Origin: Gemmatimonadales bacterium | Lineage (GTDB): Bacteria > Gemmatimonadota > Gemmatimonadetes > Gemmatimonadales > GWC2-71-9 | DNA: 44,461 bases | Direction of reading: 5' to 3' | Assembly (NCBI GenBank): GCA_035620935.1 | Contig: DASPFU010000035.1 | Span: 1 to 44,461, forward strand | In this document: positions 28,164-43,421 of the stretch, in pieces | How the letters are laid out: each line of letters begins with the position of its first letter | Numbering within the stretch: the stretch's first letter is position 1 | Position numbers and translations under genes: made by a program | Notes under the pieces: model-generated | What the model was told of the DNA's origin: nothing | Seen by the model: the letters and a program-made list of their open reading frames with translations, nothing else | Database searches by the model: none

Positions 28164-28282
28164 GTTCCCAGACGCCGGACAAGTTCCCAGACGCCAAGGG
28201 TGAAGTGGTCGCCAGCCGTCAGTTGCACGGAGCCGACCGGCGACTGCAACTTGGAGCCACTTCATCCTTGGCGTCTGGGAAC
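28164..28282. repeat. REP/MITE-like palindromic element built on a 26-nt unit GTTCCCAGACGCCAAGGGTGAAGTGG
   Basis: There is a half copy at 28164-28176, a full copy at 28183-28208, and an inverted copy at 28257-28282 (25/26 complementary) after a 48-nt spacer. A further copy is at 33316-33341. Confidence 0.8.
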
Positions 28283-28284
28283 TA

Positions 28285-28312
28285 CCCTGATTCCTGTTTC
28301 CTGATTCCTGCC
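28285..28312. repeat. Tandem heptamer tract CCCTGAT TCCTGTT TCCTGAT TCCTGCC
   Basis: The 7-nt period was read directly. The tract abuts the REP-like element, 15 nt upstream of the tldD-like ATG. Confidence 0.8.
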
Positions 28313-28326
28313 GACCGGAGACTCGT

Positions 28327-29895
28327 ATGGACCGTCGCCAATTCCTCGGAACCACGGCTGGCGCTGTCGCGGCGGTCGGGCTGGCCCCCAGGCTGCCCCA
28401 GGGCGACCCGGCGATCCGCGATCTCTGCCTGCGCGCCCTCGAAGCCGCTCGGACTGCCGGCGCGAGCTACGCCGACGTGCGCGTGGGGCGCAATCGCTCG
28501 CAGTCGGTGGCGACCCGCGAGCAGCAGATCACCGGGGCGAACGAGTCCGAGACCTTCGGGTTCGGCGTACGGGTGCTGGTGGACGGGGCGTGGGGGTTCG
28601 CGGCGAGCCGCGAGCTGACGCGCGACGAGGTCGTGCGGATCGCCCGCAGTGCCGTGGCGCAGGCGCGGGCCAACCGCCGGGCCACGCGGCGACCGGTCAT
28701 GCTGGCCCCGGTCGATCCCGTGAAGGACGGGCGGTGGCAGAGCCCCATCGAGATCGACCCGTTCAAGGTGCCGCTCGAGGACAAGGTGCAGCTGCTGCTC
28801 GCGGCCAACGCCGCGGCCCTGCAGGTGCCGGGAGCGCGGTTCGTCAATTCGTCGCTGGCGTTCTTCCTCCAGGAGAAGACCTACGCGTCGACCGACGACG
28901 TGTTCACGGTGCAGCAGATCTACCGCTGCCTGCCGCAGATGACGGTGACCGCCGTCGATGCAGGGGGTGGCGGCTTCGAGACCCGCAATTCCGCGGAGAT
29001 CGCGCCGATGGGCCTGGGGTACGAATGGGTCCTCAAGGCCGACCTGGCGGGCAACGCGCCGCGCTGGGCCGAAGAGGCGGTGCGCAAGCTCACGGCGAAG
29101 TCGGTGGAGGCGGGGTCGTACGACCTCGTGCTCGACCCACACCACCTCTTCCTCACGATCCACGAGTCGATCGCGCATCCGACCGAGCTCGATCGCGTGC
29201 TGGGATACGAGGCGAACTACGCGGGCACGAGCTTCGCGGCGCCACCCGAGGCGGTGCTGGGCAAGCTGAAGTGGGGCCCGGAGTTCATGACCATCCAGGG
29301 CGACCGCTCGCAGGCGGGGTCGCTGTCGGCGTGCGGGTGGGACGACGACGGGGTCGCGCCCGAGACCTACCAGATCATCCGCAACGGCGTGCTGGTGGAC
29401 TATCAGACCACGCGGGACCAGGTGGAGTGGATCCGGCCGTACACCGGTCGGACGCGCTCGCACGGCTGCTCCTACGCCGAGTCGTGGGCCGACGTGCAGT
29501 TCCAGCGGATGCCCAACGTGTCGCTGTTGCCCGGGGAGCGGGACCTGACGGTGGACGACCTCATCGCCGCGACCGACAAGGGCATCTACATCGTGGGACG
29601 CGGCTCGTACTCGATCGATCAGCAGCGCTACAACTTCCAGTTCGGCGGCCAGGCGTTCTACGAGATCCAGGGCGGCAAGATCGTCGGGATGCTGAAGGAC
29701 GTGGCCTACCAGGCCCGGACGGTGGATTTCTGGAACTCGCTCGACATGCTGGGGGGGCCGCGGTCCTACACCCTGAACGGCTCGTTCAACGACGGGAAGG
29801 GCCAACCCTCGCAGTCGAACGCGGTGAGCCACGGGTGCCCGCCCGCGCGCTTCGGGAATGTGAACGTGATCAACACGGGGAGGTACCGTGGCTGA
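28327..29895 (+). CDS. Tat-exported TldD-family (peptidase U62) metalloprotease
   Basis: The twin-arginine signal is 'MDRRQFLGTTAGAVAAVGLAP'. 'FGFGVRVLVDGAWGFA' is present, along with the HExxxH motif 'IHESIAHPTELD'. GGAGA precedes the ATG. Confidence 0.87.
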   Translation: MDRRQFLGTTAGAVAAVGLAPRLPQGDPAIRDLCLRALEAARTAGASYADVRVGRNRSQSVATREQQITGANESETFGFGVRVLVDGAWGFAASRELTRDEVVRIARSAVAQARANRRATRRPVMLAPVDPVKDGRWQSPIEIDPFKVPLEDKVQLLLAANAAALQVPGARFVNSSLAFFLQEKTYASTDDVFTVQQIYRCLPQMTVTAVDAGGGGFETRNSAEIAPMGLGYEWVLKADLAGNAPRWAEEAVRKLTAKSVEAGSYDLVLDPHHLFLTIHESIAHPTELDRVLGYEANYAGTSFAAPPEAVLGKLKWGPEFMTIQGDRSQAGSLSACGWDDDGVAPETYQIIRNGVLVDYQTTRDQVEWIRPYTGRTRSHGCSYAESWADVQFQRMPNVSLLPGERDLTVDDLIAATDKGIYIVGRGSYSIDQQRYNFQFGGQAFYEIQGGKIVGMLKDVAYQARTVDFWNSLDMLGGPRSYTLNGSFNDGKGQPSQSNAVSHGCPPARFGNVNVINTGRYRG

Positions 29896-31237
29896 GGGAC
29901 TGAGCCGCGCCGAGGCGCGCCGCCTCGCCGACCGCGTGCTCGCGCTGTCGCGGGCCGAGGGGTGCCAGGTGAGCATCGGGTCGGGCGTGGACGGGAACAC
30001 CCGGTTCGCGGCGAACCAGATCTCGACCTCGGGGGACACGGCGAACGCGGTGCTCACCGTGAGCTCCCGGTTCGGCAAGCGGCAGGCGTCGGCGACCACC
30101 AACGTGTTCGACGACGCCGGCCTGCAGCGCGCCGTGGAGACGAGCGAGCGGCTCGCCCGGCTGGCGCCCGAGAACCCGGAGCTGATGCCGCTGCTGTCGC
30201 CCCAGACCTACGGGGCGGTGGCGGCGTCGTTCCCGGTCACCGAACGGCTCGATGCGGCCGCGCGGGCCGATGCGGTGCGCACCGCCGCCGACGCGTGCGA
30301 GGCGGCCGGGCTCCAGGGCGCGGGCTTCGTGCACCGCACCGCGGGAGCGAATGCCGTCGCCAACTCCGGCGGACTGTTCGCCCACCACCACTCGAGTGAC
30401 GCGGCCTACACGCTGACGGTCCGCACGCCGGACGGGCAGGGCTCGGGATGGGCGGGGACGGCGCACAACGACTGGACGCGGATGACGCGTGCGTCCGCCC
30501 TGGCCGACCGGGCCATCAGCAAGGCGCGCGGCAGCCGCGCGCCGGTCACGCTCGAGCCGGGGAAGTACGCCGTGGTGCTCGAGCCGACCGCCGTCGGCAA
30601 TCTGCTGGGCCTGATGGCGTTCGCGATGAACGCCCGGGCCGCGGACGAGGGACGGAACTTCTTCGCGAAACGGGGCGGCGGCACCAAGCTCGGCGAGCGC
30701 GTGGTCGATGAGCGGGTCACCGTGCTGTCGGACCCGGCGGACCCCGATCTCCTGGAGCAGCCGTTCACGGGCGAAGGGCTGCCCGTCGGTCGCACCGTGT
30801 GGATCGAGAACGGCGTCCTGAAGAACCTCGCCTACGACCGCTTCTGGGCCGACCGGAAGGGTGTGGCGCCGGTGCCGTTCGGCGGCGGCATCAGGCTCGT
30901 GGGCGGGACGGCCACGACCGAGGAGCTGATCGCCCAGGTGCCCCGCGGTCTGCTGGTCACGCGGTTCTGGTACATCCGCGGGGTGGACCAGCGCAGCCTG
31001 CTGTTCACCGGGCTGACGCGTGACGGGCTGTTCCTGATCGAGAACGGCAAGGTGACGCAGGCCGTGCGCAACTTCCGTTTCAACGAGAGCCCGGTGATCA
31101 TGCTGAACAACCTGGAGGCCATCGGCCGCGCGGAGCGGGTGGCGGCGTCCGAGTCGGGCGGCGTGGGCGGGAGCGTCGTGGTCCCGCCGCTGCTCGTGCG
31201 GGAGTTCACCTTCACGTCGATCAGCGAGGCGGTGTAG
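29888..31237 (+). CDS. PmbA/TldE-family partner protein (peptidase U62)
   Basis: GTG overlaps the TldD-like stop by 8 nt. 'GNTRFAANQISTSGD' and the C-terminal 'GLFLIENGKV...VRNFRFNESP' are typical of PmbA/TldD-family proteins. Confidence 0.83.
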   Translation: MAEGLSRAEARRLADRVLALSRAEGCQVSIGSGVDGNTRFAANQISTSGDTANAVLTVSSRFGKRQASATTNVFDDAGLQRAVETSERLARLAPENPELMPLLSPQTYGAVAASFPVTERLDAAARADAVRTAADACEAAGLQGAGFVHRTAGANAVANSGGLFAHHHSSDAAYTLTVRTPDGQGSGWAGTAHNDWTRMTRASALADRAISKARGSRAPVTLEPGKYAVVLEPTAVGNLLGLMAFAMNARAADEGRNFFAKRGGGTKLGERVVDERVTVLSDPADPDLLEQPFTGEGLPVGRTVWIENGVLKNLAYDRFWADRKGVAPVPFGGGIRLVGGTATTEELIAQVPRGLLVTRFWYIRGVDQRSLLFTGLTRDGLFLIENGKVTQAVRNFRFNESPVIMLNNLEAIGRAERVAASESGGVGGSVVVPPLLVREFTFTSISEAV

Positions 31238-31255
31238 CGGGGAGGTGCCCCTCGG

Positions 31256-31423
31256 CTATCGGCGGGGATCCACCGGCAGATGCCGGTGCACGTGGTCGTC
31301 GCCCTCGGCGTCGTCCGCGAACCAGCAGTACGCCCAGATCTTGGCGGGCCGGGCGCTGTCGCGGCCGGCGCGCAGGATGATGCCCAGGGGCTCGTCGTCG
31401 AGGATCAGCGGCAGACTCGTCAT
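31256..31423 (-). CDS. Small ORF (55 aa) absent from the ORF track: MTSLPLILDDEPLGIILRAGRDSARPAKIWAYCWFADDAEGDDHVHRHLPVDPRR
   Basis: Translated by hand from the minus strand. 51 of 55 codons end in G/C, matching real genes here, and the composition is balanced rather than Arg/Pro-rich. There is no clear SD and I recognise no family. Confidence 0.45.
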   Translation of the reverse strand: MTSLPLILDDEPLGIILRAGRDSARPAKIWAYCWFADDAEGDDHVHRHLPVDPRR

Positions 31424-31465
31424 GCCAGCGGTAATGGCAAGGACCCTGCCGCGGGGGCAACGTCT

Positions 31466-31493
31466 TAACTAGTTGTCACAAAAGAACTTCCAA
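31466..31493 (-). promoter_or_regulatory. Putative promoter TTGGAA-16 nt-TAGTTA upstream of the 55-aa ORF
   Basis: On the minus strand, TTGGAA is at 31493-31488 and TAGTTA at 31471-31466. This is the most AT-rich spacer in the window. Confidence 0.35.
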
Positions 31494-31515
31494 ATCATCT
31501 CGTAGCCGAGTGTCG

Positions 31516-32367
31516 TCACTTTGACACGTTCGAGCGCGTGTCGTCTTGACGCTCCGGCTTGATGGCCGCGAACCCCGCGCCGCGCGGGGTGCGCGGCCGT
31601 CGCACGATGTGCCAGTCGGCGTAGATCCGCTGCAGGGCGTCCGGTGCGATGGGGATGACCTCGGGGGTGTGCACCGGTGGCAGGACGAGGTGCACGCCGC
31701 CCGGCGACGTGCGGACCTGCAGGTCCCGGAGCGCCGCGGCTTGGGCCGCCTGGTGCGTCTCCGCGAACGCGGCGGGATCGACGACCGCCAGGGACGGGAG
31801 GCAGTCGGGGAACCAGCCGCCGAACTGCAGCACCAGCGCCTCGAAGCGGCCCGAGAGCTGCTCGGTGACGGCGCGTTGCTCGGCGGACTCGACGGCGCCC
31901 AGGTCCTGATCGAGCAGCAGGACGCGCGCGTCGTGCGCGGCGACGAACAGTGCGGCGGGAAGCCACCCCGACCCGACGACGACCACGGCGTCGCCCGGCT
32001 CGAGGCGAAGGGCGTAGTCCACCAGCAGCGAGTCCGGCTCGAGTCCCCAGTGCGTCGGCTGGCGCTGGGCGTCGCGCAGCGCGCGGTGCTGGCGCTTCCA
32101 CCGCGGGAACGACGGCAGCCGCAGGCGCTTCATGATGAGGCGGTCCACGTGCTCGAGCACGAGCACCTCGGTGAGCACGTACTGGTTGCCAGCGGCGACG
32201 TCGAGCTCCCGCACGGCCTCGTCGCCGAGGGCGAGGATCTCCTGGCGGCCCAGCGAGTCCTTGTATTCCTCGATGCGCTGCACCAGGAACTCGTGGTACT
32301 CGCGCCGCAGGGAGCGCGGGTCGAGCGCGGGCGGGCGCGGGCGGCCGCGCGGCGTGGATCTCAGCAC
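31516..32367 (-). CDS. Hypothetical two-domain protein; the C-terminal half has a Rossmann-like/SAM-methyltransferase-like beta-alpha-beta motif
   Basis: This is the in-frame 3' part of track ORF 31516..32700. Coding-like composition starts near GTG 32367, which overlaps the CDF stop (GTGCTGA). 'GDAVVVVGSGWLPAALFVAAHDARVLLLDQD' resembles a nucleotide-binding motif. The family is not recognised. Confidence 0.55.
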   Translation of the reverse strand: MLRSTPRGRPRPPALDPRSLRREYHEFLVQRIEEYKDSLGRQEILALGDEAVRELDVAAGNQYVLTEVLVLEHVDRLIMKRLRLPSFPRWKRQHRALRDAQRQPTHWGLEPDSLLVDYALRLEPGDAVVVVGSGWLPAALFVAAHDARVLLLDQDLGAVESAEQRAVTEQLSGRFEALVLQFGGWFPDCLPSLAVVDPAAFAETHQAAQAAALRDLQVRTSPGGVHLVLPPVHTPEVIPIAPDALQRIYADWHIVRRPRTPRGAGFAAIKPERQDDTRSNVSK

Positions 32368-33236
32368 GGCTCGACGTGCACCGTCACTTCGGTGAGCTCG
32401 AGATCGCGCTTGAGCAGCGCTTCGACGCGGTCGGCGATCACGTGGGCGTCCGCCACGTTGGCCGAGCCGTCCACCGCGATGGTGACCTCGGCATACCGCA
32501 CGTGCGACCGGCTGCCGCCGCGCGAGCGGATGCCGTAGGCGCCCCGCACCCCGGCCACGCTCTCGGCGAGGCTCTGGATCGTCGCCGTCGGCGTCGCACG
32601 CTCGTCCACCAGCACGGGCAGCGCGTGCTGGAAGATCTTGTAGCCGATCCGGACGATCAGCATGGCGATGGCGAGCGCGAGCACCGGGTCGACCCACCAC
32701 CAGCCGCGCCGGGCGACCAGCATGCCGGTCACGACGCCGATGGTGATGAACACGTCGGCGCGCGTATGGGCGGCGTCGGCGAGCAGCAGGTCATTCTGCA
32801 GCTGCTCGCCCCGGCGGTGTTCGTACCAGGCGACGAACACGTTCACCGCGAGGGTGACGAGCAGGATGGCGAGCTGCAGGTCCGAGAGCCGGGGTGGGGT
32901 GCGCGCCGCCAGCAGGCGCCCGATCGCGTCGCGCACCAGCTCGAAACACGTGATCGACATGAATCCGACGATCGCGAGCGTGCCCAGGGTCTCGAACTTG
33001 CCGTGCCCATAGGGATGGTCTTCATCGGGCGGCTTGGCGGCCGCCCGGACGACCACCAGCGCCAGGACATTGTTCATCGCGTCCGCGGTGGAGTGGATCG
33101 CGTCGCCCAGGACGGCGAGCGAGCCGGCCGCGAAGCCGATGACGACCTTCGCCCCCACCACGGCCAGGTTGGCGAGGAGGATCCCCCAGAGGACGCGGCG
33201 GACGGCGGCGGACCGGGAGGAGCCGAGCTCGGGCAC
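32361..33236 (-). CDS. Cation diffusion facilitator (CDF) family metal exporter
   Basis: Six hydrophobic segments are present, with 'LGDAIHSTADAMNN', 'DEDHPYGHGKFE' and a C-terminal cytoplasmic domain. Confidence 0.9.
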   Translation of the reverse strand: MPELGSSRSAAVRRVLWGILLANLAVVGAKVVIGFAAGSLAVLGDAIHSTADAMNNVLALVVVRAAAKPPDEDHPYGHGKFETLGTLAIVGFMSITCFELVRDAIGRLLAARTPPRLSDLQLAILLVTLAVNVFVAWYEHRRGEQLQNDLLLADAAHTRADVFITIGVVTGMLVARRGWWWVDPVLALAIAMLIVRIGYKIFQHALPVLVDERATPTATIQSLAESVAGVRGAYGIRSRGGSRSHVRYAEVTIAVDGSANVADAHVIADRVEALLKRDLELTEVTVHVEPC

Positions 33237-33276
33237 GGCTACAAGCTTGGAAGGGAGAGGAGAGAAATCAACCGGG

Positions 33277-33341
33277 GAGATGGCAGATGGCTGTGGGCAG
33301 ATGGCTGACCGGCAACCACTTCTCGCTTGGCGTCTGGGAAC
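33277..33341. repeat. Tandem heptamers (GAGATGG CAGATGG CTGTGGG CAGATGG CTGACCG) followed by a copy of the REP-like 26-mer
   Basis: 33316-33341 (CCACTTCTCGCTTGGCGTCTGGGAAC) is 23/26 identical to 28257-28282. The two copies share the flanks GACCGGC upstream and T(A/C)CCCTG downstream. Confidence 0.75.
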
Positions 33342-33356
33342 TCCCCTGGCACCTGC

Positions 33357-34526: not shown

Positions 34527-34544
34527 CGGCGATAGCTTTCGGTC

Positions 34545-35177
34545 ATGTCACTCCGTCTCATGGTGATCACCGATCCCGTGCTGCTCGAGGGGCGTGACGG
34601 CGTCGCGGTGTGCCAGCGGGCGGTGCAGGGCGGTGCGACGATGGTCCAGGTCCGCGCCAAGGGCGTGGCCCCCGCCCAGATCGCCGCTTTCACCCGGACG
34701 CTCGTGGCGACGCTGCCCGTGCCCGTGATCGTCAACGACCGCGTGGACGTGGCGCTCGCCGCCGGGGCGGCCGGTGCGCACCTCGGCCAGGACGACGTGC
34801 CCCTCGACGCGCTGCGGCCCCATCTCCCGGCCGACTTCCTGCTCGGCATCTCGGTCGGGTCGCCCGCCGAGGCCGATCGGGTGCGCCACTGGCCCGCCGA
34901 CTACTGGAGCGTGGGCCCGTGCTTCGCGACGGGCACCAAGCCCGACGCGGGGGCGGCCCTGGGGCCGGCCGGGTTCGCCGCGCTGGCTCGCGGCGCGCCG
35001 CCCGGTGTGCCGGTGATCGGCATCGGGGGGGTGACCGCCACCGGTGCGGCGGCGCTGGTGCGGGCCGGGGCCGCCGGCGTGGCCGTCATCGCGGCGGTGC
35101 TCGGCGCGCCGGATCCCGAGCGCGCCGCCCGCGAGATCCGCGACGCGATGGACGGGACCGCGACCGCCCACCCCTAG
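34545..35177 (+). CDS. thiE: Thiamine-phosphate synthase
   Basis: 'LMVITDP', 'MVQVRAKG', 'VNDRVDVALAAGAAGAHLGQDD' and 'VIGIGGV' are typical ThiE motifs. Confidence 0.87.
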   Translation: MSLRLMVITDPVLLEGRDGVAVCQRAVQGGATMVQVRAKGVAPAQIAAFTRTLVATLPVPVIVNDRVDVALAAGAAGAHLGQDDVPLDALRPHLPADFLLGISVGSPAEADRVRHWPADYWSVGPCFATGTKPDAGAALGPAGFAALARGAPPGVPVIGIGGVTATGAAALVRAGAAGVAVIAAVLGAPDPERAAREIRDAMDGTATAHP

Positions 35178-36190
35178 CGGCCTCGCCGGAGCTTCCGGAT
35201 CGCCTCGAGGTGCTGGGCGTACGTCGTGGAGAAGACGTGCTTGCCGTCGGGCTGCGCCACGAAATAGAGGTACGGGACCGCCTTGGGGAACAGCGCCGCC
35301 TCGATGCTGGCGATCCCCGGCTGACTGATCGGGCCCGGCGGCAGCCCGGTATGGAGGTAGGTGTTGTACGGGGACCGGACCCGCAGGTGTTTCTCCCATA
35401 CCCGTGGCAGGCGGCGGCCGTGCGCGTAGATGACGGTCGGGTCGGCCTGGAGGGCCATGCCGCGGCGCAGGCGATTGTGGTAGACCGCCGAGACGTACTC
35501 CCGGTCCGGGCCGTAGCGCACCTCGGCCTCCACGATCGACGCCAGCGTGACGACCTGGTGGCGCGTCAGGCCGATCGCGGCGAGACGCGCGTCCCACTCG
35601 GGGCGCCAGTGGTCGCGGAATTCCTGGGTCATCACGCGCACCAGGTCGGCCGCGCCGATCCCCACCGGCAGCTGGTAGGTCGTGGGGAACAGGTAGCCCT
35701 CGGCGGTCGACGCGATCCCGGCGAGGCCGAGGTCGGCCAGCACGGCGGGGTCGGCCGCGGCGGCGCGGAACGAATCGGCCGGGATCCGGAGACGGGTCGC
35801 GAGCCCCGCGACCTCGTACAGCATGAGCCCCTCGGGGACGGCCCACCGGACCTCGACGCCGCGACCGACCTTCAGCGCGCGCACCACCTGGCCGTAGTCC
35901 GCGGCCACCGGCAGGCGATAGGTGCCGCTCTTCAGGCTGCCGGGCAGGCCGCGCGCCCGCCCGTACACCGCGAACAGCCAGCGCGAGCCGATCACGCCGT
36001 GGGTAGCCAGCGAATCGACGGCCGCGGCGAACGACGCGCCGCGCGGGACGGTGACGGTGACGCAGGCGGCCTGCGGGGCCTCGTTGCCGCACTCGGGGGC
36101 CGGTGACCCGCAGGCGAGGAGGAGCAGCGGGGCAATGCGGAACGCGGAATGGCGAATGCGGAATCGATCGAGCGCGCGTCGATTCCGCAT
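35174..36190 (-). CDS. mltG: Endolytic murein transglycosylase MltG (YceG-like), lipoprotein-type signal
   Basis: The YceG motifs 'EGYLFPTTYQLP' and 'LASIVEAE' are present, with the lipobox-like 'LLLLACG'. The start at ATG 36190 is uncertain because the first 19 codons lie inside a heptamer palindrome. Confidence 0.82.
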   Translation of the reverse strand: MRNRRALDRFRIRHSAFRIAPLLLLACGSPAPECGNEAPQAACVTVTVPRGASFAAAVDSLATHGVIGSRWLFAVYGRARGLPGSLKSGTYRLPVAADYGQVVRALKVGRGVEVRWAVPEGLMLYEVAGLATRLRIPADSFRAAAADPAVLADLGLAGIASTAEGYLFPTTYQLPVGIGAADLVRVMTQEFRDHWRPEWDARLAAIGLTRHQVVTLASIVEAEVRYGPDREYVSAVYHNRLRRGMALQADPTVIYAHGRRLPRVWEKHLRVRSPYNTYLHTGLPPGPISQPGIASIEAALFPKAVPYLYFVAQPDGKHVFSTTYAQHLEAIRKLRRGR

Positions 36191-36212
36191 TCCGCATTCC
36201 ACATTCCGCACT
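36134..36212. repeat. Long imperfect palindrome of tandem CGGAATG-type heptamers
   Basis: The left arm is AATGCGG AACGCGG AATGGCG AATGCGG AATCGA. The loop is gcgcgcg flanked by ATCGA/TCGAT. The right arm is TCGATT CCGCATT CCGCATT CCACATT CCGCACT. Confidence 0.85.
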
Positions 36213-36213
36213 G

Positions 36214-36645
36214 TCACGATTCGGCGCCCCGACCGGCGTCCAGGTAATGCTGCAGCATCACCGCCGCCGCCAGCGCGTCCACGTCGTCCTTGCGGCCCCG
36301 CGTCGATCCGCCCATCTCCCGGACGGTGCGCAGGGCACGGGCCGTGGTGAGGCGCTCGTCCCACAGCTCGACCGGCAGCCCGCTGCGGCGGGCGATGTCA
36401 GCGGCGAGCTGGCGGGCCGCCGCGGCCGCCTCCCCTTCCTCGCCGTGCTCGTCGAGCGGGAGGCCGACGACGATCCCCGACACGCCGTGCGCGGTGCAGT
36501 GGGCGAGGAGCTGCTGCATCGGGAAGCGTTTCCCCGGACGTCGCGTGAGGGTGGCGAGGGGCCGGGCGATGATGCGCGTCTCGTCGGTCAGGGCGAGGCC
36601 GATGCGACGCTCGCCCCAGTCCACGCCGAGCAGGCGGCCGTTCAC
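36214..36645 (-). CDS. ruvX: Holliday-junction resolvase-like nuclease RuvX/YqgF
   Basis: It has '[17 protein letters not shown]' and '[13 protein letters not shown]'. 143 aa; overlaps the rho stop by 4 nt. Confidence 0.9.
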
Positions 36646-37901
36646 CCCTGGGCCATCGTGGCGAAGAACTCCTGGTTGGTCTTGGTGCGCTTCATCCGTT
36701 CGAGCAGGAATTCGATCGCCTCGACCGGCGGCATGTCGGCCAGGAAGTTCCGCAGCAGGTAGATCTTGTTGAGCTCGTCCTTGGACAGCAGCAGCTCTTC
36801 CTTGCGGGTGCTGGTCTTCTGGGTGTCGATGGCCGGGAAGGTGCGCCGCTCGGCGATGCGCCGGTCGAGCACCACTTCGGAGTTGCCGGTGCCCTTGAAC
36901 TCCTCGAAGATCACCTCGTCCATCCGCGACCCGGTATCGATCAGGGCGGTGCCGATGATCGTGAGCGAGCCGCCCCCTTCGATCTTCCGCGCCGCGCCGA
37001 AGAAGCGCTTGGGCTTCTGCAGGGCGTTGGCGTCCACGCCGCCGGACAGGATCTTGCCCGAGTGCGGCACCACGACGTTGTGCGCGCGGCCCATGCGGGT
37101 GATCGAGTCCAGCAGGATCACGACGTCGCGGCCGTGCTCCACCAGACGCTTCGCCTTCTCGATCACCATGTCGGCCACCTGCACGTGACGGTCGGCGGGC
37201 TCGTCGAACGTGGACGAGATGACCTCCACGTTGGGCCCCTTCACGTTCTCCTCCATGTCGGTGACCTCCTCGGGCCGCTCGTCGATGAGCAGCACGATGA
37301 GGTACACCTCCGGGTGGTTCTCGATGATCGAATTGGCGAGCTTCTGGAGGAGGATGGTCTTGCCGGCCTTGGGTGGCGACACGATCAGCGCGCGCTGGCC
37401 TTTGCCGATGGGACAGAGCAGGTCCATCACCCGCATCGAGAGGTCGCCATCCTTGCGCTCGAGCCGGATGCGCTCTTCGGGGTACCGCGGCCGCAGGTTC
37501 TCGAACGCGACCCGGTGCTTGGCCTTCTCCGGCTCCTCCCCGTTGACCGTCTCGACCTTCAGCAGGGCGAGGTAGCGCTCGCCTTCCTTGGGGGGACGCA
37601 CCTGGCCGAGCACCGTATCGCCCGTGCGCAGGTCGAAGCGCTTGATCTGGCTCGGCGAGACGTAGATGTCGTCCGGGCCGTAGAGGTAGTTCCAGTCGGG
37701 GCTGCGCAGGAACCCGTAACCCTCCGGGAGGATCTCCAGCACGCCCTCGCCGCGGAGCACGGTGTCGGTGTCGAGCAGCGATTGTTCGATGCGGAAGATG
37801 AGATCCTGCTTGCGGAGGCCGGAGTAGTTCGTGATGTTCAGGCTCTCCGCCATCGCGTGCAGTTCCGCGACGGACTTCCTCTTCAGTTCGGCGATATCCA
37901 C
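36642..37901 (-). CDS. rho: Transcription termination factor Rho
   Basis: The N-terminus is '[19 protein letters not shown]', followed by an OB fold. The Walker A is '[17 protein letters not shown]', with '[10 protein letters not shown]' and 'VILLDSITR' downstream. Confidence 0.97.
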
Positions 37902-38004
37902 GTGCGGGGGTGCTCCGTGGCCTGCGGGGAGGCAGGCGATTGGGGGGAATGGGGTACGGTTGTGCGGTTACGCGTTGACCGCGCGGCGGTCAGGAATCTG
38001 CGGG

Positions 38005-39165
38005 ATGTGTCGAGGTCACTATGCTAGGGGTCGGGCCGACGTGAGTCAAGAGCAGGGGGGGGACCTGGCGTCCTGCTTGGTGGCGTGGCGTACCACCCAG
38101 CTCCGGGACCGGCAAGTCGTTGATGCGCTTGTACATCCAGACCATGCGGCGCCGTCCGCGGAGCTGTCCCACCACCTCGCCAGCTGGCCCGGTCCGGCCT
38201 ACTGGTCCGACGAGGCGGACGGCCGCCACCTCGTCCTGACCCGGCGGTGGCCCCGCGCGCCGGAGCGCTGGGCCCTGCACGCCGGGCTGCTCATCGCGAC
38301 GCTGTGCACCACGACGTACGCCGGAGCGATACTCGCCGGTGCGATCCAGCCGGGGCACCTCCTTGGCCTGTTCACCGAGCTCGCGCCGACCCGGGACGCG
38401 CTGCGCGCCTGGGCCACGGGGCTGACGTTCTCCCTGCCGCTCGTCGCCATCCTGCTCGCCCACGAGCTGGGCCATTACCTCACGGCGCGCCGCTACGGAC
38501 TCGATGCCTCGCCGCCGTACTTCATCCCCGTGCCGCTCTGGCCGTCGTTCATCGGCACGATGGGCGCGTTCATCCGGCTGCGCACCGTGCTGTCCGACCG
38601 GCGCCAGCTGATCGATGTCGGGGCCGCGGGTCCGTTCGCCGGTTTCGTGGTCGCGCTCCCGGTGCTGGCGCTCGGCCTGGCGCGATCCGAGCCGCTGCCG
38701 GCGGTCGTGGGACTCCAGGGGATGGTCATCTGGTTCGGCGCCCTGCCGGTGGAGCTCGGGGACTCGCTCGTGACGCTGGCGTTGCGCCGGCTCGTCGGAT
38801 CGAGCGCGACCTCGGTCGCGCTCGATCCGCTGGCGTTCGCCGGCTGGGTGGGGATGATGGTCACGATGCTCAACCTCCTGCCCATCGCCCAGCTCGACGG
38901 CGGCCACGTGCTGTACGCCGCCGTGCCGGCGTGGCACCGCCCGCTGGCCGCGGGATTCTGGGGCCTGCTGCTCGTGCTGGGCTGGTTCGGGTGGATCGGA
39001 TGGGCGGTGTGGGCGGTGCTGGTGCTCGCGTTGTCGCGCGGGCGGCTCGGTCACCCGCCGGTGCTCGACGGGATCCGGCCCCTGCCGCGATCGCGCCATG
39101 CGGTGGCGCTGGGTGCGCTGCTCCTGTTCGCGATCACCTTCGCGCCGGTGCCGTTCAGGATCTGA
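38005..39165 (+). CDS. Site-2 protease family (M50) membrane metalloprotease
   Basis: The 'LLAHELGHYLTARRYG' HExxH motif sits in a TM helix, with multiple hydrophobic segments and 'LLPIAQLDGGHV'. The start is uncertain (ATG 38005 or GTG 38041); the track start at 37831 would overlap rho. Confidence 0.8.
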   Translation: MCRGHYARGRADVSQEQGGDLASCLVAWRTTQLRDRQVVDALVHPDHAAPSAELSHHLASWPGPAYWSDEADGRHLVLTRRWPRAPERWALHAGLLIATLCTTTYAGAILAGAIQPGHLLGLFTELAPTRDALRAWATGLTFSLPLVAILLAHELGHYLTARRYGLDASPPYFIPVPLWPSFIGTMGAFIRLRTVLSDRRQLIDVGAAGPFAGFVVALPVLALGLARSEPLPAVVGLQGMVIWFGALPVELGDSLVTLALRRLVGSSATSVALDPLAFAGWVGMMVTMLNLLPIAQLDGGHVLYAAVPAWHRPLAAGFWGLLLVLGWFGWIGWAVWAVLVLALSRGRLGHPPVLDGIRPLPRSRHAVALGALLLFAITFAPVPFRI

Positions 39166-39240
39166 GGGACGGGGGAGGAGGGACGAGGGACGGGTGCCAC
39201 CGAATGCGCCCGTCCCTCGTCCCCCGTCCCTGCTCCCTGC
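39164..39240 (+). terminator. Heptamer-built hairpin (GGGACGR units) directly after the M50 stop; no T-tract
   Basis: GGGACGAGGGACGGG (39180-39194) pairs perfectly with CCCGTCCCTCGTCCC (39209-39223) around a 14-nt loop. Both arms continue outward as imperfect 7-nt units. Confidence 0.6.
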
Positions 39241-39254
39241 TGTGGCCGAACCTA

Positions 39255-39290
39255 TTGCGTCAGCGTCGCTTAGTCTTATCTTTGCGCAAA
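39255..39290 (+). promoter_or_regulatory. Putative promoter TTGCGT-16 nt-TATCTT with adjacent palindrome TTTGCGCAAA
   Basis: TTGCGT is at 39255-39260 and TATCTT at 39277-39282. A perfect 10-bp palindrome lies at 39281-39290, about 18 nt upstream of ATG 39308. Confidence 0.4.
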
Positions 39291-39307
39291 CCAGCCTACG
39301 GCTCGGC

Positions 39308-39589
39308 ATGCCCGCACAACCGGCTCGCCATCTCGTTCCCGCGAACACCCCGGTCGTCCACGAACTGCCCAGCATCCGTTTCGATGGGAACGAGGTCCCC
39401 GTGCGGCTCGCCGTCCGCCAGACGGAAGACGGGATGTGGCGCGGCCGGGTGCATTTCGGGGCGGAGGACACCGAGGGCGAGCGGTCCACCGCCGAGATCT
39501 TCTGCGCGGCCTCCGAGCAGGACCTGTGGGAGTCGGTGCGCGATCTGCGCGACCATCACCTCCGAGATCTGTACCGCTCGCTGATTTGA
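39308..39589 (+). CDS. Orphan hypothetical protein (93 aa)
   Basis: This is the in-frame 3' part of track ORF 39098..39589, starting at ATG 39308. It has high G/C third-position bias and a balanced composition ('...FDGNEVPVRLAVRQTEDGMWRGRVHFG...EQDLWESVRDLRDHHLRDLYRSLI'). I recognise no family. Confidence 0.55.
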   Translation: MPAQPARHLVPANTPVVHELPSIRFDGNEVPVRLAVRQTEDGMWRGRVHFGAEDTEGERSTAEIFCAASEQDLWESVRDLRDHHLRDLYRSLI

Positions 39590-39590
39590 C

Positions 39591-39682
39591 GGGAGCCGGG
39601 AGCCGGGAGCCGGGAGCCGTTCGGCTGGGGTCGGCACCCCGCCGCGCGCGAGGAGCGTCCGGCTCTCGGCTCCCGGCTCCCG
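39591..39682 (+). terminator. Heptamer-built hairpin: (GGGAGCC)x4 opposed to GGCTCTC GGCTCCC GGCTCCC; no T-tract
   Basis: The left arm is 39591-39619 and the right arm 39660-39682. The 40-nt loop contains its own hairpin GGGGT-cggc-ACCCC. The element starts 2 nt after the TGA of the 93-aa ORF. Confidence 0.6.
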
Positions 39683-39918
39683 ACATGTCGAGGCTCACCC
39701 CCACCACGTGATCCGGATTCACCGTCCCCGCTTCAGTTGGACCGCCCGCTGGTGGCGTCCGCGGCGGACCCTCGTGGCTCTGCGTCGCTGGACTCCCTGG
39801 CGCAGGCGGCGGTCGCCCTTCTGAGAAGAAACGGTCCCTATCCGGGGCCAATGTGACGGTCTAGCAGGGTGTTAGGGCTCTCCTTATCTTGAGCAGGCTT
39901 CCTCCCCATCGGGTGATC

Positions 39919-41607
39919 ATGCAGAACCCGACCCGCGCTCGGGCGGTCATTGCGTTGGCCGCCGTGCTCGCCGTCGCCACGTGCTCGTTCCCGGACGACC
40001 AGAGTGGGAGCGTCTACGTCGTCGTCGCCCAGTCGGACACCCTGGTAGCCCGGGGTGTCCTCGGCGACGGCGAGACGGAGTCCCTCTCGGCCCGGGCCTA
40101 CCAGCTGGTCGGGGCGACCGCCGACTCCGGCACCGGGGACGACGTCGAGATCCGCAACATCGACTTCTTCTGGTCCAGCGACAACGTGGGGATCGCGACC
40201 GTGCAGGGCGATACGCCGGGCGGCGCGGGCGTGACCGGGGTGGCCCCGGGGGTCGTGGTGGTCCGTGCGACGCCCAAGCAGTACCAGGGCGCGACCGAGG
40301 GCACCACCGCGTTGCGTGTGGTCGGCCTGTACGCCGTCGACTCGGTGCGTCCCGCGCAGGCGCGGTACGGTGAGAAGGTGACCCTCTTCGGCGTGCGGAT
40401 GAACCTGACGCTCGGGGCCTCGCTCGCGGGCCAGAACCTCTTCCTCGACCCGTTCTCGTTCCAGGGGAACCGGGACGGGCTGGGGCGGATCGAGCTGTGG
40501 GTGCCGCCCCGCGCCACCTCGGCGCGGTTGACGTTCCTCGGGCCCGGCGTGTTCGGCCAGAGCGACAGCGTCGCCGTCACGGAGCGCGACCTGTACGAGC
40601 CCGACTCCGCCCTCGCGGCGCGCATCGACATCAACGGGGCGGGTGGACAGCCGACCATCGGGGAGAAGCTCACGCTGTTCTACAACCCGGCCCTGTTCTA
40701 CGAACCCGTGCCGATCGGCGGGCAGGCGGTCGACTGGTTCCGCTTCGTGCGCGCCGACACCACGCAGGCCGTCACCTTCATCCTCAATTCGACGGTCCTC
40801 AACGACACGGCGTTCTCCTACCTGTCCGACACCATCGAGTTCAGCGGCGGTGCGTACTTCGTCGTGTCCGGCTCGTTCATCCACTCGCCCGGCTTCTACG
40901 TGTGCGAGGACCGGTTCTTCTTCCCGTTCGAGGAACGGTCCGTCTCGACCATCATCGCGCTGCGGGACCTGCCCGACACGTCGCTCCAGCTGCTGTCGTT
41001 CTACGCGCGGGACGGTCGCTACGAGCTGGCCGCGGTGCGGGGGTACCATACGGTGGACCGCCGCATCGGGCCGGACCGCTTCGAGGAGAACGACATCTGG
41101 TGCAAGTACGCGGACCGCAACTTCGCCGATCCGACGCGGCAGATCGTGATCGGGGCGGCGACGCCGCTGTTCGCCGACACGCTGACCATCGACAACCCGC
41201 ACGACATCGACTGGTACCGTTTCCGGGTGACGCTGGCCGACACGGTCACGGTGCAGACCAAGCCCCGCCCCCTGGGGGGCGTCGATGCGTCCGACATCGA
41301 CCTGTACCTGCTGCGGGCGTCGGATTTCGTCCAGCTCGGCACCGACCAGGCCGCGGGATCGTTCGGCAAGGTCAAGCTGTTCCTCAACGCCGGGGACTAC
41401 TACGTCGGTGTGGTGGATCGCATCGGCGTGCCGACCCGCTACGCGATGTGCATCGTGAAGGGCGTCGCGTGCACGCCTCCCGGCAGCGCACCGGCGGCGA
41501 TGTCCGTCGTCGCGCCGCGCGCCGCCGAGTCAGTCGTGCGGGACGCGACCATCCCGCCGCCGTCGGTGACCGGTGACCGCAGGAGGCTGCCATCACCGCG
41601 CCCCTAG
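39919..41607 (+). CDS. Lipoprotein with a Big_2-like Ig domain and pre-peptidase C-terminal (PPC)-like domains
   Basis: The lipobox is 'LAVATCS'. 'FFWSSDNVGIATVQGDTPGGAGVTGVAPGVVVVRATP' is Big_2-like. 'DIDWYRFRV...DIDLYLL...GDYYVGVV' is PPC-like, with an earlier 'VDWFRFV'. Confidence 0.68.
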   Translation: MQNPTRARAVIALAAVLAVATCSFPDDQSGSVYVVVAQSDTLVARGVLGDGETESLSARAYQLVGATADSGTGDDVEIRNIDFFWSSDNVGIATVQGDTPGGAGVTGVAPGVVVVRATPKQYQGATEGTTALRVVGLYAVDSVRPAQARYGEKVTLFGVRMNLTLGASLAGQNLFLDPFSFQGNRDGLGRIELWVPPRATSARLTFLGPGVFGQSDSVAVTERDLYEPDSALAARIDINGAGGQPTIGEKLTLFYNPALFYEPVPIGGQAVDWFRFVRADTTQAVTFILNSTVLNDTAFSYLSDTIEFSGGAYFVVSGSFIHSPGFYVCEDRFFFPFEERSVSTIIALRDLPDTSLQLLSFYARDGRYELAAVRGYHTVDRRIGPDRFEENDIWCKYADRNFADPTRQIVIGAATPLFADTLTIDNPHDIDWYRFRVTLADTVTVQTKPRPLGGVDASDIDLYLLRASDFVQLGTDQAAGSFGKVKLFLNAGDYYVGVVDRIGVPTRYAMCIVKGVACTPPGSAPAAMSVVAPRAAESVVRDATIPPPSVTGDRRRLPSPRP

Positions 41608-43421
41608 TCGAGTGCGCCCAGTGCCACGCGCAGCTGCCTGACGGCAGCCGGTACTGTCACTCCTGCGGCGCGGACCAGACCGGCGGCGGCGCGCTGGCGG
41701 CGCCCGCCAGCGCGATCGACGCGCTGCAGCAGCAGTTGCAGCGGGCGGTCCACGGCAAGTACGAGCTGCAGAAGATGCTGGGCCGGGGCGGGATGGGCGC
41801 CGTGTTCCTCGCGAAGGACCTCGCGCTCGACCGCGACGTCGCGATCAAGGTCCTGCCGCCCGAGGTCTCGCAGGACACGAAGCTCGTCCAGCGGTTCCAT
41901 GCGGAGGCGAGGACCGCCGCGCGACTCGACCACACCAACATCATCCCCATCTACCGCGTCGAGAGCGAGGGCGGCCTCAACTACTTCGTGATGAAGTACG
42001 TCTCCGGCACGTCGCTCGAGGACGTCGTCGAAGAGAAGAAGGTCCTGCCCATCGACTACGTCCAGCGCGTGTTGTGGGAGGCCGCGTGCGCCCTGGGGCA
42101 CGCACACCAGCGCGGCGTGGTGCACCGCGACGTGAAGCCGGCGAACATCATGTTCGACCATGACGGTCGTGTGATGCTCACCGACTTCGGCATCTCGAAG
42201 GCACTGCAGGCCGCCAGCGGTTTCACCGGCACCGGCATGATCATCGGCACGCCCCACTACATGGCGCCGGAGCAGGCCAAGGGCCAGACCGTGGACGGCC
42301 GCGCCGACCAGTATTCGCTGGGCGTGGTGGGCTACCGACTGATCACGGGACAGCTGCCGTTCAGCGGCGATTCCGTGCACACCATCCTCTACAAGCACAT
42401 CTTCGAGGACCCGCCCACCGCGCGCGACGTCCGCCGCGAGGTCCCGGAGTTCCTGGCGGCCGCCGTGCACCGCGCGATGGCCAAGGACCCGGCGCAGCGC
42501 TTCGCCACCATTGAGGAGTTCGCGACCGCCGTGTGGCCGGAGCAGCCGGTGACCGCGGGGCGGAGCGGGCCGATCACGCTGCGGCCCCGCCCCAATCCCG
42601 CGCTCTCGGCGGAGCTGCCGACCGAGCCGTTCGCGTCCCCCGCACCCCATGCGCCGCCCGTCACTCCCGTTCCCGCGGGCGCACGACGTCCGGCGCCGCG
42701 CGTCGAGCGGCCGAGGGAGCAGCCGAAGCGGTCCAGCGGCGGGTTGTTCGCCCTCCTCGTCGTCGTCCTGCTGGGCGGCGCGGCCGGGGGGTACTGGTAC
42801 CTGCAACAGGGGACGGGGGACCGGGGACGGGGGACGGGTGCGGTGGCGCCGACGCCGGTGGTGCAGGCGCCCGCGCCGCCCGCGGCCTCCGTCGTGGCCG
42901 ACGTCCGGGTCACGCCCAGCACCGCGCAGCTCCGGGTGGGGGGCACGACGGTCCTCCAGGCCCAGGCAGTGGACGCGCAGGGGCAGGCGGTCCCCGGGAC
43001 GGTGCTGACGTGGTCCTCGAGCGCGCCGCAGATCGCCCGCGTCGACTCGCTGGGCCGCGTGACGGCGGTGGCCCCGGGGCTGGCCATGATCGAGGCGCTC
43101 GCCGGCTCCGCGCGCGGGCAGGCCGCGGTCAGCGTCGCGAGCCCCGCGGCGCCCACGGTGCAGGCCCCGGTGCGCCCGCCCGAGACGGCGGCCCCCGCGG
43201 CCGAGCAGTGGGGCTACATCTCGATCAACGCGACGCCGGCGGCGACCGTGTTCATCAACGGGGTAGAGGCGGGGGAGACCCCGCTCGGCAACTACCGCGT
43301 CCGTCCCGGCCGCGTGACCATCCGTCTCGAGGCCCCCGGCTTTCGCACCGTCAGTGAGCAGGTCGTCGTCGAGGCCGGTGCGACCGTGCGCCGGACGCAC
43401 TCACTCCTTCCGGAAGGATGA
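41592..43421 (+). CDS. Hanks-type Ser/Thr protein kinase with an N-terminal zinc ribbon, a TM helix, and extracellular Big_2 and PEGA-like domains
   Basis: The kinase motifs are 'LGRGGMGAVF', 'AIKVL', 'HRDVKPANIM', 'DFGISK' and 'APE'. The TM helix is 'LFALLVVVLLGGAAGGYWYL'. The Big_2 domain is 'LTWSSSAPQIARVDSLGRVTAVAPG'. The PEGA-like domain is 'GYISINATPAATVFINGVEAGETP...LEAPGF'. The 5' end is uncertain: the frame is open from 41577 and the first canonical start is TTG 41736. Confidence 0.85.
   Translation: MTAPLVECAQCHAQLPDGSRYCHSCGADQTGGGALAAPASAIDALQQQLQRAVHGKYELQKMLGRGGMGAVFLAKDLALDRDVAIKVLPPEVSQDTKLVQRFHAEARTAARLDHTNIIPIYRVESEGGLNYFVMKYVSGTSLEDVVEEKKVLPIDYVQRVLWEAACALGHAHQRGVVHRDVKPANIMFDHDGRVMLTDFGISKALQAASGFTGTGMIIGTPHYMAPEQAKGQTVDGRADQYSLGVVGYRLITGQLPFSGDSVHTILYKHIFEDPPTARDVRREVPEFLAAAVHRAMAKDPAQRFATIEEFATAVWPEQPVTAGRSGPITLRPRPNPALSAELPTEPFASPAPHAPPVTPVPAGARRPAPRVERPREQPKRSSGGLFALLVVVLLGGAAGGYWYLQQGTGDRGRGTGAVAPTPVVQAPAPPAASVVADVRVTPSTAQLRVGGTTVLQAQAVDAQGQAVPGTVLTWSSSAPQIARVDSLGRVTAVAPGLAMIEALAGSARGQAAVSVASPAAPTVQAPVRPPETAAPAAEQWGYISINATPAATVFINGVEAGETPLGNYRVRPGRVTIRLEAPGFRTVSEQVVVEAGATVRRTHSLLPEG
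42809..42840 (+). repeat. Tandem heptamers GGGGACG GGGGACC GGGGACG GGGGACG inside the kinase CDS
   Basis: Read directly. The tract encodes 'GTGDRGRGTG' just after the TM helix, and its unit resembles the 39164-39240 hairpin unit. Confidence 0.7.

Follow-up and report, generated by a model that had tools for sequence, protein, structure and literature searches.

Why should tandem repeats of seven nucleotides recur at six places in one short stretch of a bacterial chromosome, with a different unit each time, and why are three of them mirrored into long hairpins? The question is raised by a contig of a Gemmatimonadales bacterium (NCBI GenBank assembly GCA_035620935.1, contig DASPFU010000035.1, positions 1 to 44,461 of the forward strand), here called the window, which is 44,461 nt in length and has a G+C content of 72%. 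A first-pass annotation, made from the letters of the sequence, described the repeats as a family resembling the short tandemly repeated repetitive (STRR) sequences. Tandem heptamers of the STRR kind are indeed present, and their architecture recurs while the unit differs between loci. The comparative work described below leans, by a modest degree, towards an origin at the DNA level, in which slippage and template switching between arms build quasi-palindromes that persist as stem-loops at gene boundaries.

Each of the six tracts listed in the first-pass annotation is reported by Tandem Repeats Finder. Single arrays are found at locus 1 (28286-28310, + strand; CCTGATT, 3.6 copies, 88% matches), locus 2 (33278-33305, - strand; AGATGGC, 4.0 copies, 71% matches, the weakest of the six) and locus 6 (42809-42838, + strand; GGGGACG, 4.3 copies, 91% matches). 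The other loci have two arms. Those of locus 3 (- strand) consist of AATGCGG (36134-36164, 4.4 copies) and ATTCCGC (36182-36210, 4.1 copies), and those of locus 4 (+ strand) of GAGGGAC (39164-39192, 4.1 copies) and CGTCCCT/TCCCTGC (39211-39241). Locus 5 (+ strand) has CGGGAGC at 39590-39619 (4.3 copies, 100% matches) and CCGGCTC at 39659-39682 (3.4 copies).

A lag-p self-match scan, run against 100 dinucleotide-preserving shuffles, was used together with Tandem Repeats Finder for array detection. With 85% self-match over three periods, the window has 3 period-7 tracts versus 0.01 in the shuffles (n=100). At a threshold of 16/21 matches it has 9 versus 0.45, with a maximum of 3 in any shuffle, and the excess over shuffled sequence that the annotation had proposed as a check is therefore present within the window. 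Control periods at 16/21 matches give no tract for period 8 and 3 versus 3.1 shuffled for period 5. As period 8 is absent and period 5 is at chance level, the enrichment is specific to period 7. It should be pointed out that locus 2 passes at 15/21 only, where shuffles yield 2.5 tracts, and it is thus marginal when taken alone. A seventh tract (21145-21181, GCGGGTG, 2.4 copies, within a coding sequence) was discounted as too weak.

Loci 3, 4 and 5 are mirrored, as had been claimed, and belong to the longest inverted repeats that the window contains. The paired segments are 36115-36167 with 36179-36231, 39165-39197 with 39206-39238, and 39597-39619 with 39660-39682, the last pair being 96% complementary. 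RNA folding gives -61.6, -65.7 and -83.6 kcal/mol for the three loci in this order (z = -8.3, -7.1 and -7.4), and 0/200 shuffles are as stable. The stem-loops are about 25-35 bp in length and lack a T-tract. The unpaired arrays at loci 1, 2 and 6 are unstructured when folded as RNA. Tracts and hairpins in the window are thus confirmed as real and non-random.

Their positions are also non-random. All three mirrored hairpins start no more than 5 nt from a stop codon, that of ruvX (36216-36214), of an M50 peptidase gene (39163-39165) and of orf93 (39587-39589), respectively. Four loci out of six lie wholly between genes, though non-coding DNA makes up only about 5% of the window according to the gene map (binomial p ~1e-4). 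The two that overlap coding sequence, a point already made in the first-pass annotation, are locus 6, within a kinase coding sequence, and locus 3, within the 5' end of mltG. The annotation had placed the hairpins at gene boundaries. This describes loci 4 and 5, which sit on stop codons, but locus 3 appears to be translated, making up the first ~30 codons of mltG. It had also reported the lack of T-tracts, and a terminator scan of 27.5-44.4 kb finds zero hairpin-plus-T-tract sites, none at the heptamer loci.

Locus 3 lies in the rho-ruvX-mltG operon on the - strand, where ruvX (Holliday-junction resolvase-like; 36214-36645) is upstream of mltG (YceG family, with a Pfam match to YceG; 35174-36217). 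The hairpin (36127-36217) begins at the ruvX stop codon. The 5' arm of the transcript is at 36182-36210 (GCGGAAT x4), the other arm at 36134-36164 (ATTCCGC x4) and the loop at about 36166-36178. Translation of mltG probably starts at a GTG (36217-36215), a codon that overlaps the TGA of ruvX. An internal ATG (36190) was rejected as the start because relatives have no start codon there, whereas the start overlapping ruvX is conserved.

Approximately 35 ruvX-mltG junctions from Gemmatimonadales were collected by a RuvX metagenome scan and from genome loci; L-numbers are used as labels for the compared loci and contigs from relatives and other genomes, and W stands for the window. At 12 hairpin-free junctions the stop codon of ruvX and the start codon of mltG overlap (as GTGA or ATGA), and MltG opens with a short lipoprotein signal peptide, e.g. 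MTPRLLLLLALTAC. At no fewer than 15 junctions (W, L002, L003, L083, L086, L088, L089, L091, L094, L095, L096, L098, L100, L109 and L145) a mirrored heptamer hairpin comes after the overlapping start, and the conservation of architecture looked for by the annotation is therefore found in at least 15 genomes at this site. L081 retains mainly the 3' arm, and direct-only arrays are present in L085, L092 and L102. In L085, (GCCGTGC)x4, and in L092, (GTGCGTC)x4, the array occupies the same n-region of the mltG signal peptide and the mirrored arm is absent, which suggests either that arrays precede mirroring or that one arm can disappear.

The reading frame is open from the overlapping start through arms and loop into MltG in 12 of the 15 hairpin junctions, i.e. 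in all where that start was found. In L109 the frame is open across the hairpin and the script did not find the overlapping start; L145 stayed ambiguous. Frame is kept among inserts of at least 8 different lengths, with loops of 11 to ~70 nt. No start codon is present in the hairpin junctions between the hairpin and the hydrophobic core of the MltG signal peptide, which together with the open frame argues that the hairpin is translated. It would be read as an Arg-rich extension, of ~30 codons, of the n-region of a cleaved lipoprotein signal peptide. An n-region of this kind is permissive for insertions.

Units of the arms vary by lineage (AATGCGG, AGTGCGG, AACGCGG, ATTGCGG), and the two arms vary together. 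An alignment of 13 orthologous ruvX-mltG hairpin sequences, termed A2, with a 31-pair helix, has 89.8% of its cells paired and shows changes on both sides in 10/31 pairs (23 cells). The covariation score is 0.216 versus 0.117 when shuffled, and 0/500 shuffles reach 0.216. When the register is slid by 1-3 columns, at most 55% of cells are paired. Consensus units of the two arms match exactly in 8 of the 13 loci. Mismatches are informative as to the level at which pairing is maintained, since in a helix selected as RNA, G·U is normally much better tolerated than A·C. In A2 the sense strand has 13 G·U and 12 A·C, and the mismatches are thus strand-symmetric. This near equality points to a process acting on DNA, rather than on RNA, that keeps the arms complementary, and template switching from arm to arm would produce just such covariation without a G·U bias.

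Loci 4 and 5 flank orf93 (39308-39589, + strand), which encodes a conserved 93-aa protein with no Pfam match. Locus 4 (39165-39238, + strand) begins on the stop codon of the M50-family peptidase gene (37831-39165, + strand). It has a GGGACGR x4 arm at 39164-39192, the other arm at 39211-39241 and an 8-nt loop. Downstream of it is a conserved promoter-like element for orf93, TTGCGT-N17-TATCTT. Locus 5 (39590-39685, + strand) adjoins the orf93 stop codon and pairs (GGGAGCC)x4.3 at 39590-39619 with (GGCTCCC)x3.4 at 39659-39682 around a self-folding loop of 40 nt.

A long hairpin follows the M50 stop codon in 9/13 genomes, window included. In L001 the hairpin is shorter and has the GGGACGR unit of the window. 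Other relatives have other units: GTGAGTG in L003, GGGGCTN in L086, and another periodic G-rich hairpin in L095. The arms of L088 and L089 are made of tandem GGAGGTTnnn, with a period of 9-10 rather than 7, and mirrored tandem arms are therefore not strictly bound to period 7. In L002 and L081 a GTGGGGA-type hairpin is followed by TTTT(T), i.e. a canonical terminator. There is no such hairpin at this site in L004, L005, L091 and L009. The promoter-like element (TTGCGT, ~17 nt, TATCTT) and the orf93 start come next in every site compared. As the promoter element is constant and the hairpins are varied, what recurs is a long stem-loop that separates the peptidase gene from the orf93 promoter, and this stem-loop appears to persist despite turnover of its sequence and even of its repeat period. 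In the same spacer of L086, about 80 nt comprising the hairpin end and the orf93 promoter-like element are tandemly duplicated, either in reality or as an assembly artefact.

The history of locus 5 is different. In 14/14 other relatives a small open reading frame (ORF) with a HisKA-like LRHDLSNPL motif has its start overlapping the orf93 stop. The (GGGAGCC)4 hairpin replaces this ORF only in the window and in L161 and L162, and both flanks are alignable. Since it is restricted to the window lineage, in place of the ORF, the hairpin is probably young and would have arisen together with loss of the HisKA-like ORF. The gene group itself looks like an uncharacterised conserved cassette of small genes of which the middle ORF was lost in the window lineage. 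orf93 is present in all Gemmatimonadales relatives compared, and is followed by the ~65-aa LRHDLSNPL ORF and then by a third small Arg-rich ORF (window 39308-39589 plus 39590-39912; L001 11384-12050; and 13 other relatives).

L161 and L162 are independent Joint Genome Institute (JGI) soil metagenome contigs which encode an identical orf93 protein. L161 differs from the window by 1 mismatch in 1683 nt (0.06%) and L162 by 6 substitutions in ~900 nt (0.7%). Both have loci 4 and 5 with the unit number and sequence of the window, and identical hairpins in two independent assemblies show that these are not assembly artefacts. The first-pass annotation had suggested variation in unit number as a sign of slippage. 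None is seen at loci 4 and 5 between these near-identical strains, and between species there is complete turnover of the unit. The arrays at loci 4 and 5 thus seem not to be hypervariable at the strain scale, and units appear to be replaced entirely between species. L162 starts in the middle of hairpin 4 (its position 1 is window 39187); such hairpins apparently break short-read assemblies.

The closest relative, L001, is syntenic across the entire 28-44 kb stretch with protein identities of ~70-93%, and L003, L002, L005, L006 and L076 are partially syntenic. Locus 1 lies in the 5' leader of the TldD gene, 16 nt before the start codon (ATG, 28327), and immediately follows a copy of a 13-nt motif, GGCGTCTGGGAAC; the array is not present in the orthologous spacers of L001 and L003. 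Locus 2, of the CCATCTG type when read on the sense strand, is 40-70 nt upstream of the start of a CDF transporter gene (33236) and also adjoins a copy of GGCGTCTGGGAAC; it is not present in the orthologous spacers of L001, L003 and L076. Locus 6, GGGGACG/GGGGACC x4.3, is in a Ser/Thr kinase coding sequence (41736-43421) and, compared with L001, forms an in-frame insertion of 9 codons in the juxtamembrane linker.

No sequence family is found, contrary to the term used in the first-pass annotation. In the window and a further 1.85 Mb of DNA, relatives included, each unit (searched as at least 2.4 perfect units) is arrayed only at its own or the orthologous locus. Tandem copies of the published units GGGAATC, GGGACCG and TAACTGA, and of the STRR1-3 units (CCCCAGT, TTGGTCA and CAACAGT), are absent from the same DNA. 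Confinement of each unit to one locus means that this is not a dispersed sequence family.

Tracts of period 7 also occur outside this genome. Gemmatimonadales DNA (0.42 Mb) has 53 period-7 tracts versus 11 of period 8 and 17 of period 5. Terriglobia DNA (0.11 Mb) has 46 versus 3 and 1. Among unrelated loci, the Terriglobia genomes L013, L014, L016, L017, L020 and L025 are rich in period 7, with up to 16 tracts per 20 kb. A Thermodesulfobacteriota contig (L023) and a Chloroflexi contig (L073) are also rich, and most other unrelated loci have zero tracts. In several Terriglobia (Acidobacteriota), successive intercistronic spacers are nearly full of mirrored arrays, with units GGATTTT, CGAAAAT, GTCAGGT, GGGTAAA and others; three such spacers in a row are filled in L020, each by a mirrored array with its own unit. 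The Terriglobia arrays are at 1542-1657, 3648-3765, 5558-5755, 10716-10885 and 13357-13632 of L020, at 4419-4590, 13318-13769 and 17998-18426 of L017, at 3404-3659 of L014 and at 13277-13426 of L016. At 5550-5765 of L020, AAATTAT heptamer arms surround a perfect 35-bp inner palindrome (nested hairpin, -114 kcal/mol), which looks like heptamer 'terminal repeats' around another element. Among the papers searched, none reports such repeats in Acidobacteria or Gemmatimonadetes.

One further regularity concerns orientation. The 32 mirrored loci comprise 21 distinct units, and 19 of these place the G-rich arm 5' of the C-rich one. As a palindrome reads alike on either strand, the asymmetry is genuine.

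How might such structures arise? Locus-specific units, the restriction of locus 5 to one lineage and the absence of loci 1, 2 and 6 from L001 argue for local origin. In the explanation that is somewhat favoured here, an array would be made locally rather than copied in, replication slippage multiplying and homogenising a 7-nt unit to about four units. Intramolecular template switching between arms (quasi-palindrome correction) would then transfer changes from one arm to the other. The outcome would be a quasi-palindrome of 25-35 bp in which the unit drifts and the arms remain complementary. An array would survive only at a site where a long stem-loop does no harm or is of some use. Being on stop codons, with locus 4 also just before a promoter, loci 4 and 5 would most likely act as terminators without a U-tract or as 3'-end protectors, since relatives keep either a long hairpin or a true terminator after the M50 gene. 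At locus 3 a stem of about -60 kcal/mol by the start codon should block independent initiation, and translation of mltG would probably depend on ribosomes that terminate at ruvX, by analogy with classical translational coupling. Loci 1 and 2 can be looked at as single arrays in 5' leaders, and locus 6 as an in-frame insertion in a low-complexity kinase linker.

Several observations weigh against the slippage and template-switch explanation. It does not account for the bias towards a G-rich arm first, and leaves unexplained why the unit is 7 nt and why there are ~4-5 units. Unit number is ~4-5 per arm across the 15 orthologous mltG hairpins, which resembles constraint and not free drift, and slippage predicts a length polymorphism that L161 and L162 do not show. 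As to the proposed roles, the hairpins have no T-tract despite a canonical T-tract terminator elsewhere in the window (5133-5241), and stems of 28-35 bp far exceed what termination needs. In addition, the sense-strand RNA of all three window hairpins folds 6-7 kcal/mol more stably than the antisense, which weakly favours selection at the RNA level. Lastly, what is observed here consists of repeats, hairpins and their positions, the way in which they turn over and covary in relatives, a conserved reading frame and mismatches that are symmetric between strands; the origin by slippage and template switching and every functional role are inferred from these.

The possibility that the hairpins are functional RNA stem-loops under RNA-level selection, e.g. 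RNase III sites or translational regulators at cistron boundaries, with the 7-nt period a by-product of stem growth, is judged rather unlikely. RNase III substrates have a size of 22 bp, which the stems exceed. The start of three hairpins 0-5 nt from a stop codon, the covarying arms of A2 and the occupation of successive intercistronic spacers of co-directional genes by the Terriglobia hairpins would all fit such a role, as would the more stable sense folds of the window. But ten Terriglobia hairpins of defined gene orientation have no consistent difference in fold energy between sense and antisense, and A2 has equal G·U and A·C over its 13 hairpins. Because both samples are unbiased, the sense advantage in the window is probably due to chance; sense-strand selection was dropped as an interpretation of it when these larger samples gave no confirmation. 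Also against RNA function, the ruvX-mltG hairpin is missing in about half of the relatives, and Rfam at gathering threshold, over the whole window, has no match. At E<=1 over 28-44.4 kb, Rfam gives only sub-threshold generic hairpin matches to miRNA precursors.

A different proposal is that loci 4, 5 and 6 are G-quadruplex (G4)/i-motif elements of the Xanthomonas/Nostoc type, the mirrored arm serving as a competing-duplex switch. The three loci have canonical (G3+N4)x4 motifs, and four units are the minimum for a G4. Canonical G4 motifs are rarer than chance in the whole window, with 12 present versus ~30 in block-shuffled sequence, and yet these heptamer arrays account for 4 of them; the + strand carries 10 of the 12. 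In Xanthomonas four GGGAATC units are modal and form G4 in vitro (Rehm et al., 2015; PMC4692102), and the Geobacter repeat (GGGACCG)x4 has nearly the same unit. However, loci 1-3 have no G3 tract and share the period and the ~4 units, locus 3 also the mirrored architecture. Relatives carry non-G4 units such as GTGAGTG at the same site. The complementary arm is only 6-40 nt away, and a hairpin of -66 to -84 kcal/mol should outcompete a G4. No regulatory effect was found by Rehm et al. (PMC4692102). The G4 proposal thus appears improbable.

More doubtful still is that the arrays bind a protein with a 7-nt footprint, either a cold-shock-domain protein on single-stranded RNA that melts or locks the hairpin, or a DNA-binding regulator that recognizes direct repeats. 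According to the discussion in PMC4679880, CspB is reported to bind with one protein per heptamer repeat and to have little sequence specificity. Three heptamers correspond to two turns of B-DNA, and a constant ~4-5 units would suit a defined oligomer. In Nostoc, heptamer arrays affect promoter reporters according to a preprint, and this work speculates on a heptamer-binding partner. On the other hand, the unit differs by locus, and even between orthologous loci, so that a binder would have to be almost blind to sequence; some relatives have periods of 8-10 at the same site, and no candidate gene was identified.

Phase variation is most improbable. Gain or loss of a 7-nt unit could shift the frame of mltG or the kinase, or the spacing of a promoter, and a non-triplet repeat in the first 30 codons of mltG and in the kinase coding sequence is a classical phase-variable layout. 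Contingency loci were nevertheless rejected, on the basis of strain identity, L161 and L162 having the unit number of the window at both loci 4 and 5, and of intact frames, all ruvX-mltG metagenome alleles with a resolved overlapping start being in frame. Moreover, the genes are housekeeping genes, and imperfect arrays (75-91% matches) suppress slippage. A dispersed mobile or repetitive extragenic palindromic (REP)-like family (REP/RAYT, or a miniature inverted-repeat transposable element, MITE) is suggested by intergenic palindromes and by the single Terriglobia case where heptamer arms flank a 35-bp perfect palindrome in the manner of terminal inverted repeats, but can be practically discarded, as the loci share no sequence, each unit is confined to a single locus without a second copy in 1.85 Mb, no target-site duplications were seen and no transposase is found among the annotated neighbours.

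Tentatively, mirrored heptad-periodic hairpins might be a distinct, previously undescribed genome feature common to Gemmatimonadota and Terriglobia (Acidobacteriota). The traits that would define it, and these are put forward with similar reserve, are quasi-palindromes abutting stop codons, ~4-5 units per arm, a G-rich arm 5', concerted evolution of the arms and long retention at orthologous junctions, even inside a signal peptide. If so, there would have to be a dedicated mechanism that homogenises arm with arm, or a nearly sequence-blind periodic binder, cold-shock proteins for example, and in the latter case a 7-nt register might be read to control termination or translational coupling at cistron boundaries. 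If the arrays are mutational by-products only, the practical value is smaller and concerns broken assemblies and misled start-codon calls, as with mltG.

STRRs were described in 1990, and a survey of simple-sequence repeats followed in 2007. The reason for bacterial 7-nt repeats has been a standing question since the STRR description, and polymerase footprint, G-quadruplex and protein binder have not been separated. The present data add two soil phyla, Gemmatimonadota and Acidobacteriota, to the known range of the phenomenon, and provide a handle that single-unit systems do not offer, i.e. one junction in many genomes with different units. DNA-level copying and RNA-level selection become countable, as G·U against A·C over oriented hairpins, and ruvX-mltG is a tractable test case. 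The comparative data sharpen the question of the role of heptamer repeats without answering it.

The gene map of the window was built from GC3 (G+C at third codon positions), with domains assigned by Pfam. Gene order in 28-44 kb is molybdopterin oxidoreductase (-), TldD (+), PmbA (+), CDF transporter (-), RlmI-type methyltransferase (-), ThiE (+), MltG/YceG (-), RuvX (-), Rho (-), M50 peptidase (+), the 93-aa ORF (+), a 565-aa ORF (+) and the Ser/Thr kinase with Big_2 and PEGA domains (+). Like the 93-aa ORF, the 565-aa ORF has no match in Pfam. The closest matches of the M50 peptidase are Gemmatimonadales metagenome-assembled genomes. A scan for tRNA and tmRNA found none. The spacer at 5133-5241 holds a canonical hairpin followed by TTTTTT, and the organism therefore does use T-tract terminators.

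The motif GGCGTCTGGGAAC that adjoins loci 1 and 2 is present four times in the window, at 28164-28176 (-), 28183-28195 (-), 28270-28282 (+) and 33329-33341 (+), versus 0.12 copies expected, the expectation being that for a 17-mer version. Two 27-nt copies (CCACTTCnnnCTTGGCGTCTGGGAACT; 28182-28208 with 28257-28283) form an inverted repeat, 96% complementary, in the divergent oxidoreductase/TldD spacer, and one more copy of GGCGTCTGGGAAC is upstream of the CDF transporter gene. The orthologous oxidoreductase/TldD spacer of L001 has a single copy. The motif is probably an operator or a -35 element of the extracytoplasmic function (ECF) type. A reading as ECF promoters at loci 1 and 2 was tried and set aside, the spacing to a plausible -10 element being unconvincing. 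Elsewhere in the window, a 22-nt palindrome with perfect arms, TTTATGCACCTTGGTGCATAAA, at 2455-2480, upstream of an argininosuccinate-synthase-like gene, is a likely operator.

How do these repeats compare with known systems? Intrinsic terminators resemble loci 4 and 5 in having a GC-rich stem-loop directly after a stop codon, at locus 4 before the next promoter, and in relatives L002 and L081 the hairpin at the locus 4 site does carry a T-tract. Intrinsic terminator hairpins without a U-tract ('I-shaped') occur in GC-rich bacteria. The window stems differ in being 2-3x the typical length and in lacking the T-tract, and locus 3 is intra-operonic and appears to be translated. Quasi-palindrome template-switch mutagenesis, proposed in the Ripley model and studied in Escherichia coli by the Lovett laboratory, would explain strand-symmetric concerted change of the arms without RNA selection; it differs in being a mutational mechanism and not an element. 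To our knowledge, it has never been tied to heptamer arrays.

Among repeat elements, the GGGAATC arrays of Xanthomonas (~65% GC) are close in character. There are ~185 per genome in two genomes, mostly of four units, with 70-75 convergent inverted pairs capable of forming stem-loops; they are intergenic and near ORF ends, and different species share the loci but vary in array length and sequence (PMC4692102). The first-pass annotation knew of no mirrored heptamers at gene ends in a high-GC lineage, but these exist in Xanthomonas (PMC4692102), and paired arrays are also found in Geobacter metallireducens (PMC2700814). Shared with the window are the GC-rich genome, the four-unit mode, the strong intergenic bias by ORF ends, convergent pairs with the G-rich arm first, and conserved orthologous loci of varying length and sequence. 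Xanthomonas differs in having one unit genome-wide, whereas in the window every locus has its own; half of the window units have no G3 tract, and one window hairpin would be translated.

In Geobacter metallireducens, (GGGACCG)x4 is found at 49 sites, inside genes as well as between them, and MTYCTGA x5 in paired arrays on opposite strands, with 16 copies (PMC2700814). The former is close to locus 6 in unit and copy number (GGGGACC/GGGGACG x4), and the occurrence within and between genes and the existence of a paired class are also shared. The Geobacter repeats, identified by BLAST, form families of 49 and 16 copies, and no multicopy family is seen in the window. The STRRs of Calothrix and Nostoc, as cited in PMC4692102 and PMC4679880, share tandem heptanucleotides, several units per genome and a mostly intergenic location. 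They differ in that each unit is dispersed in many copies, mostly as direct arrays, with few paired in Nostoc (PMC4692102). TAACTGA arrays are found upstream of start codons in Beggiatoaceae and cyanobacteria (PMC4679880).

As summarised in PMC4679880 and PMC4692102, the survey of Mrazek, Guo and Shah (2007) found heptanucleotides to be the commonest class of long simple-sequence repeats (LSSRs) in most prokaryotes and suggested polymerase slippage as the cause. Over-representation of the 7-nt period and proposed slippage are shared with the window; the summaries contain no description of mirrored arrays, orthologous conservation or covariation of arms. The window arrays belong to the heptanucleotide LSSR class, being tandem beyond chance, of favoured period 7 and mostly non-coding, and depart from STRRs in that no unit is dispersed over many loci of the DNA compared. 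The repeat class itself is thus already described, in cyanobacteria, Xanthomonas and Geobacter. What goes beyond the published accounts consulted are locus-specific units, covariation among orthologous hairpins, a constant unit number, a hairpin that is apparently translated and the presence of these structures in two further phyla.

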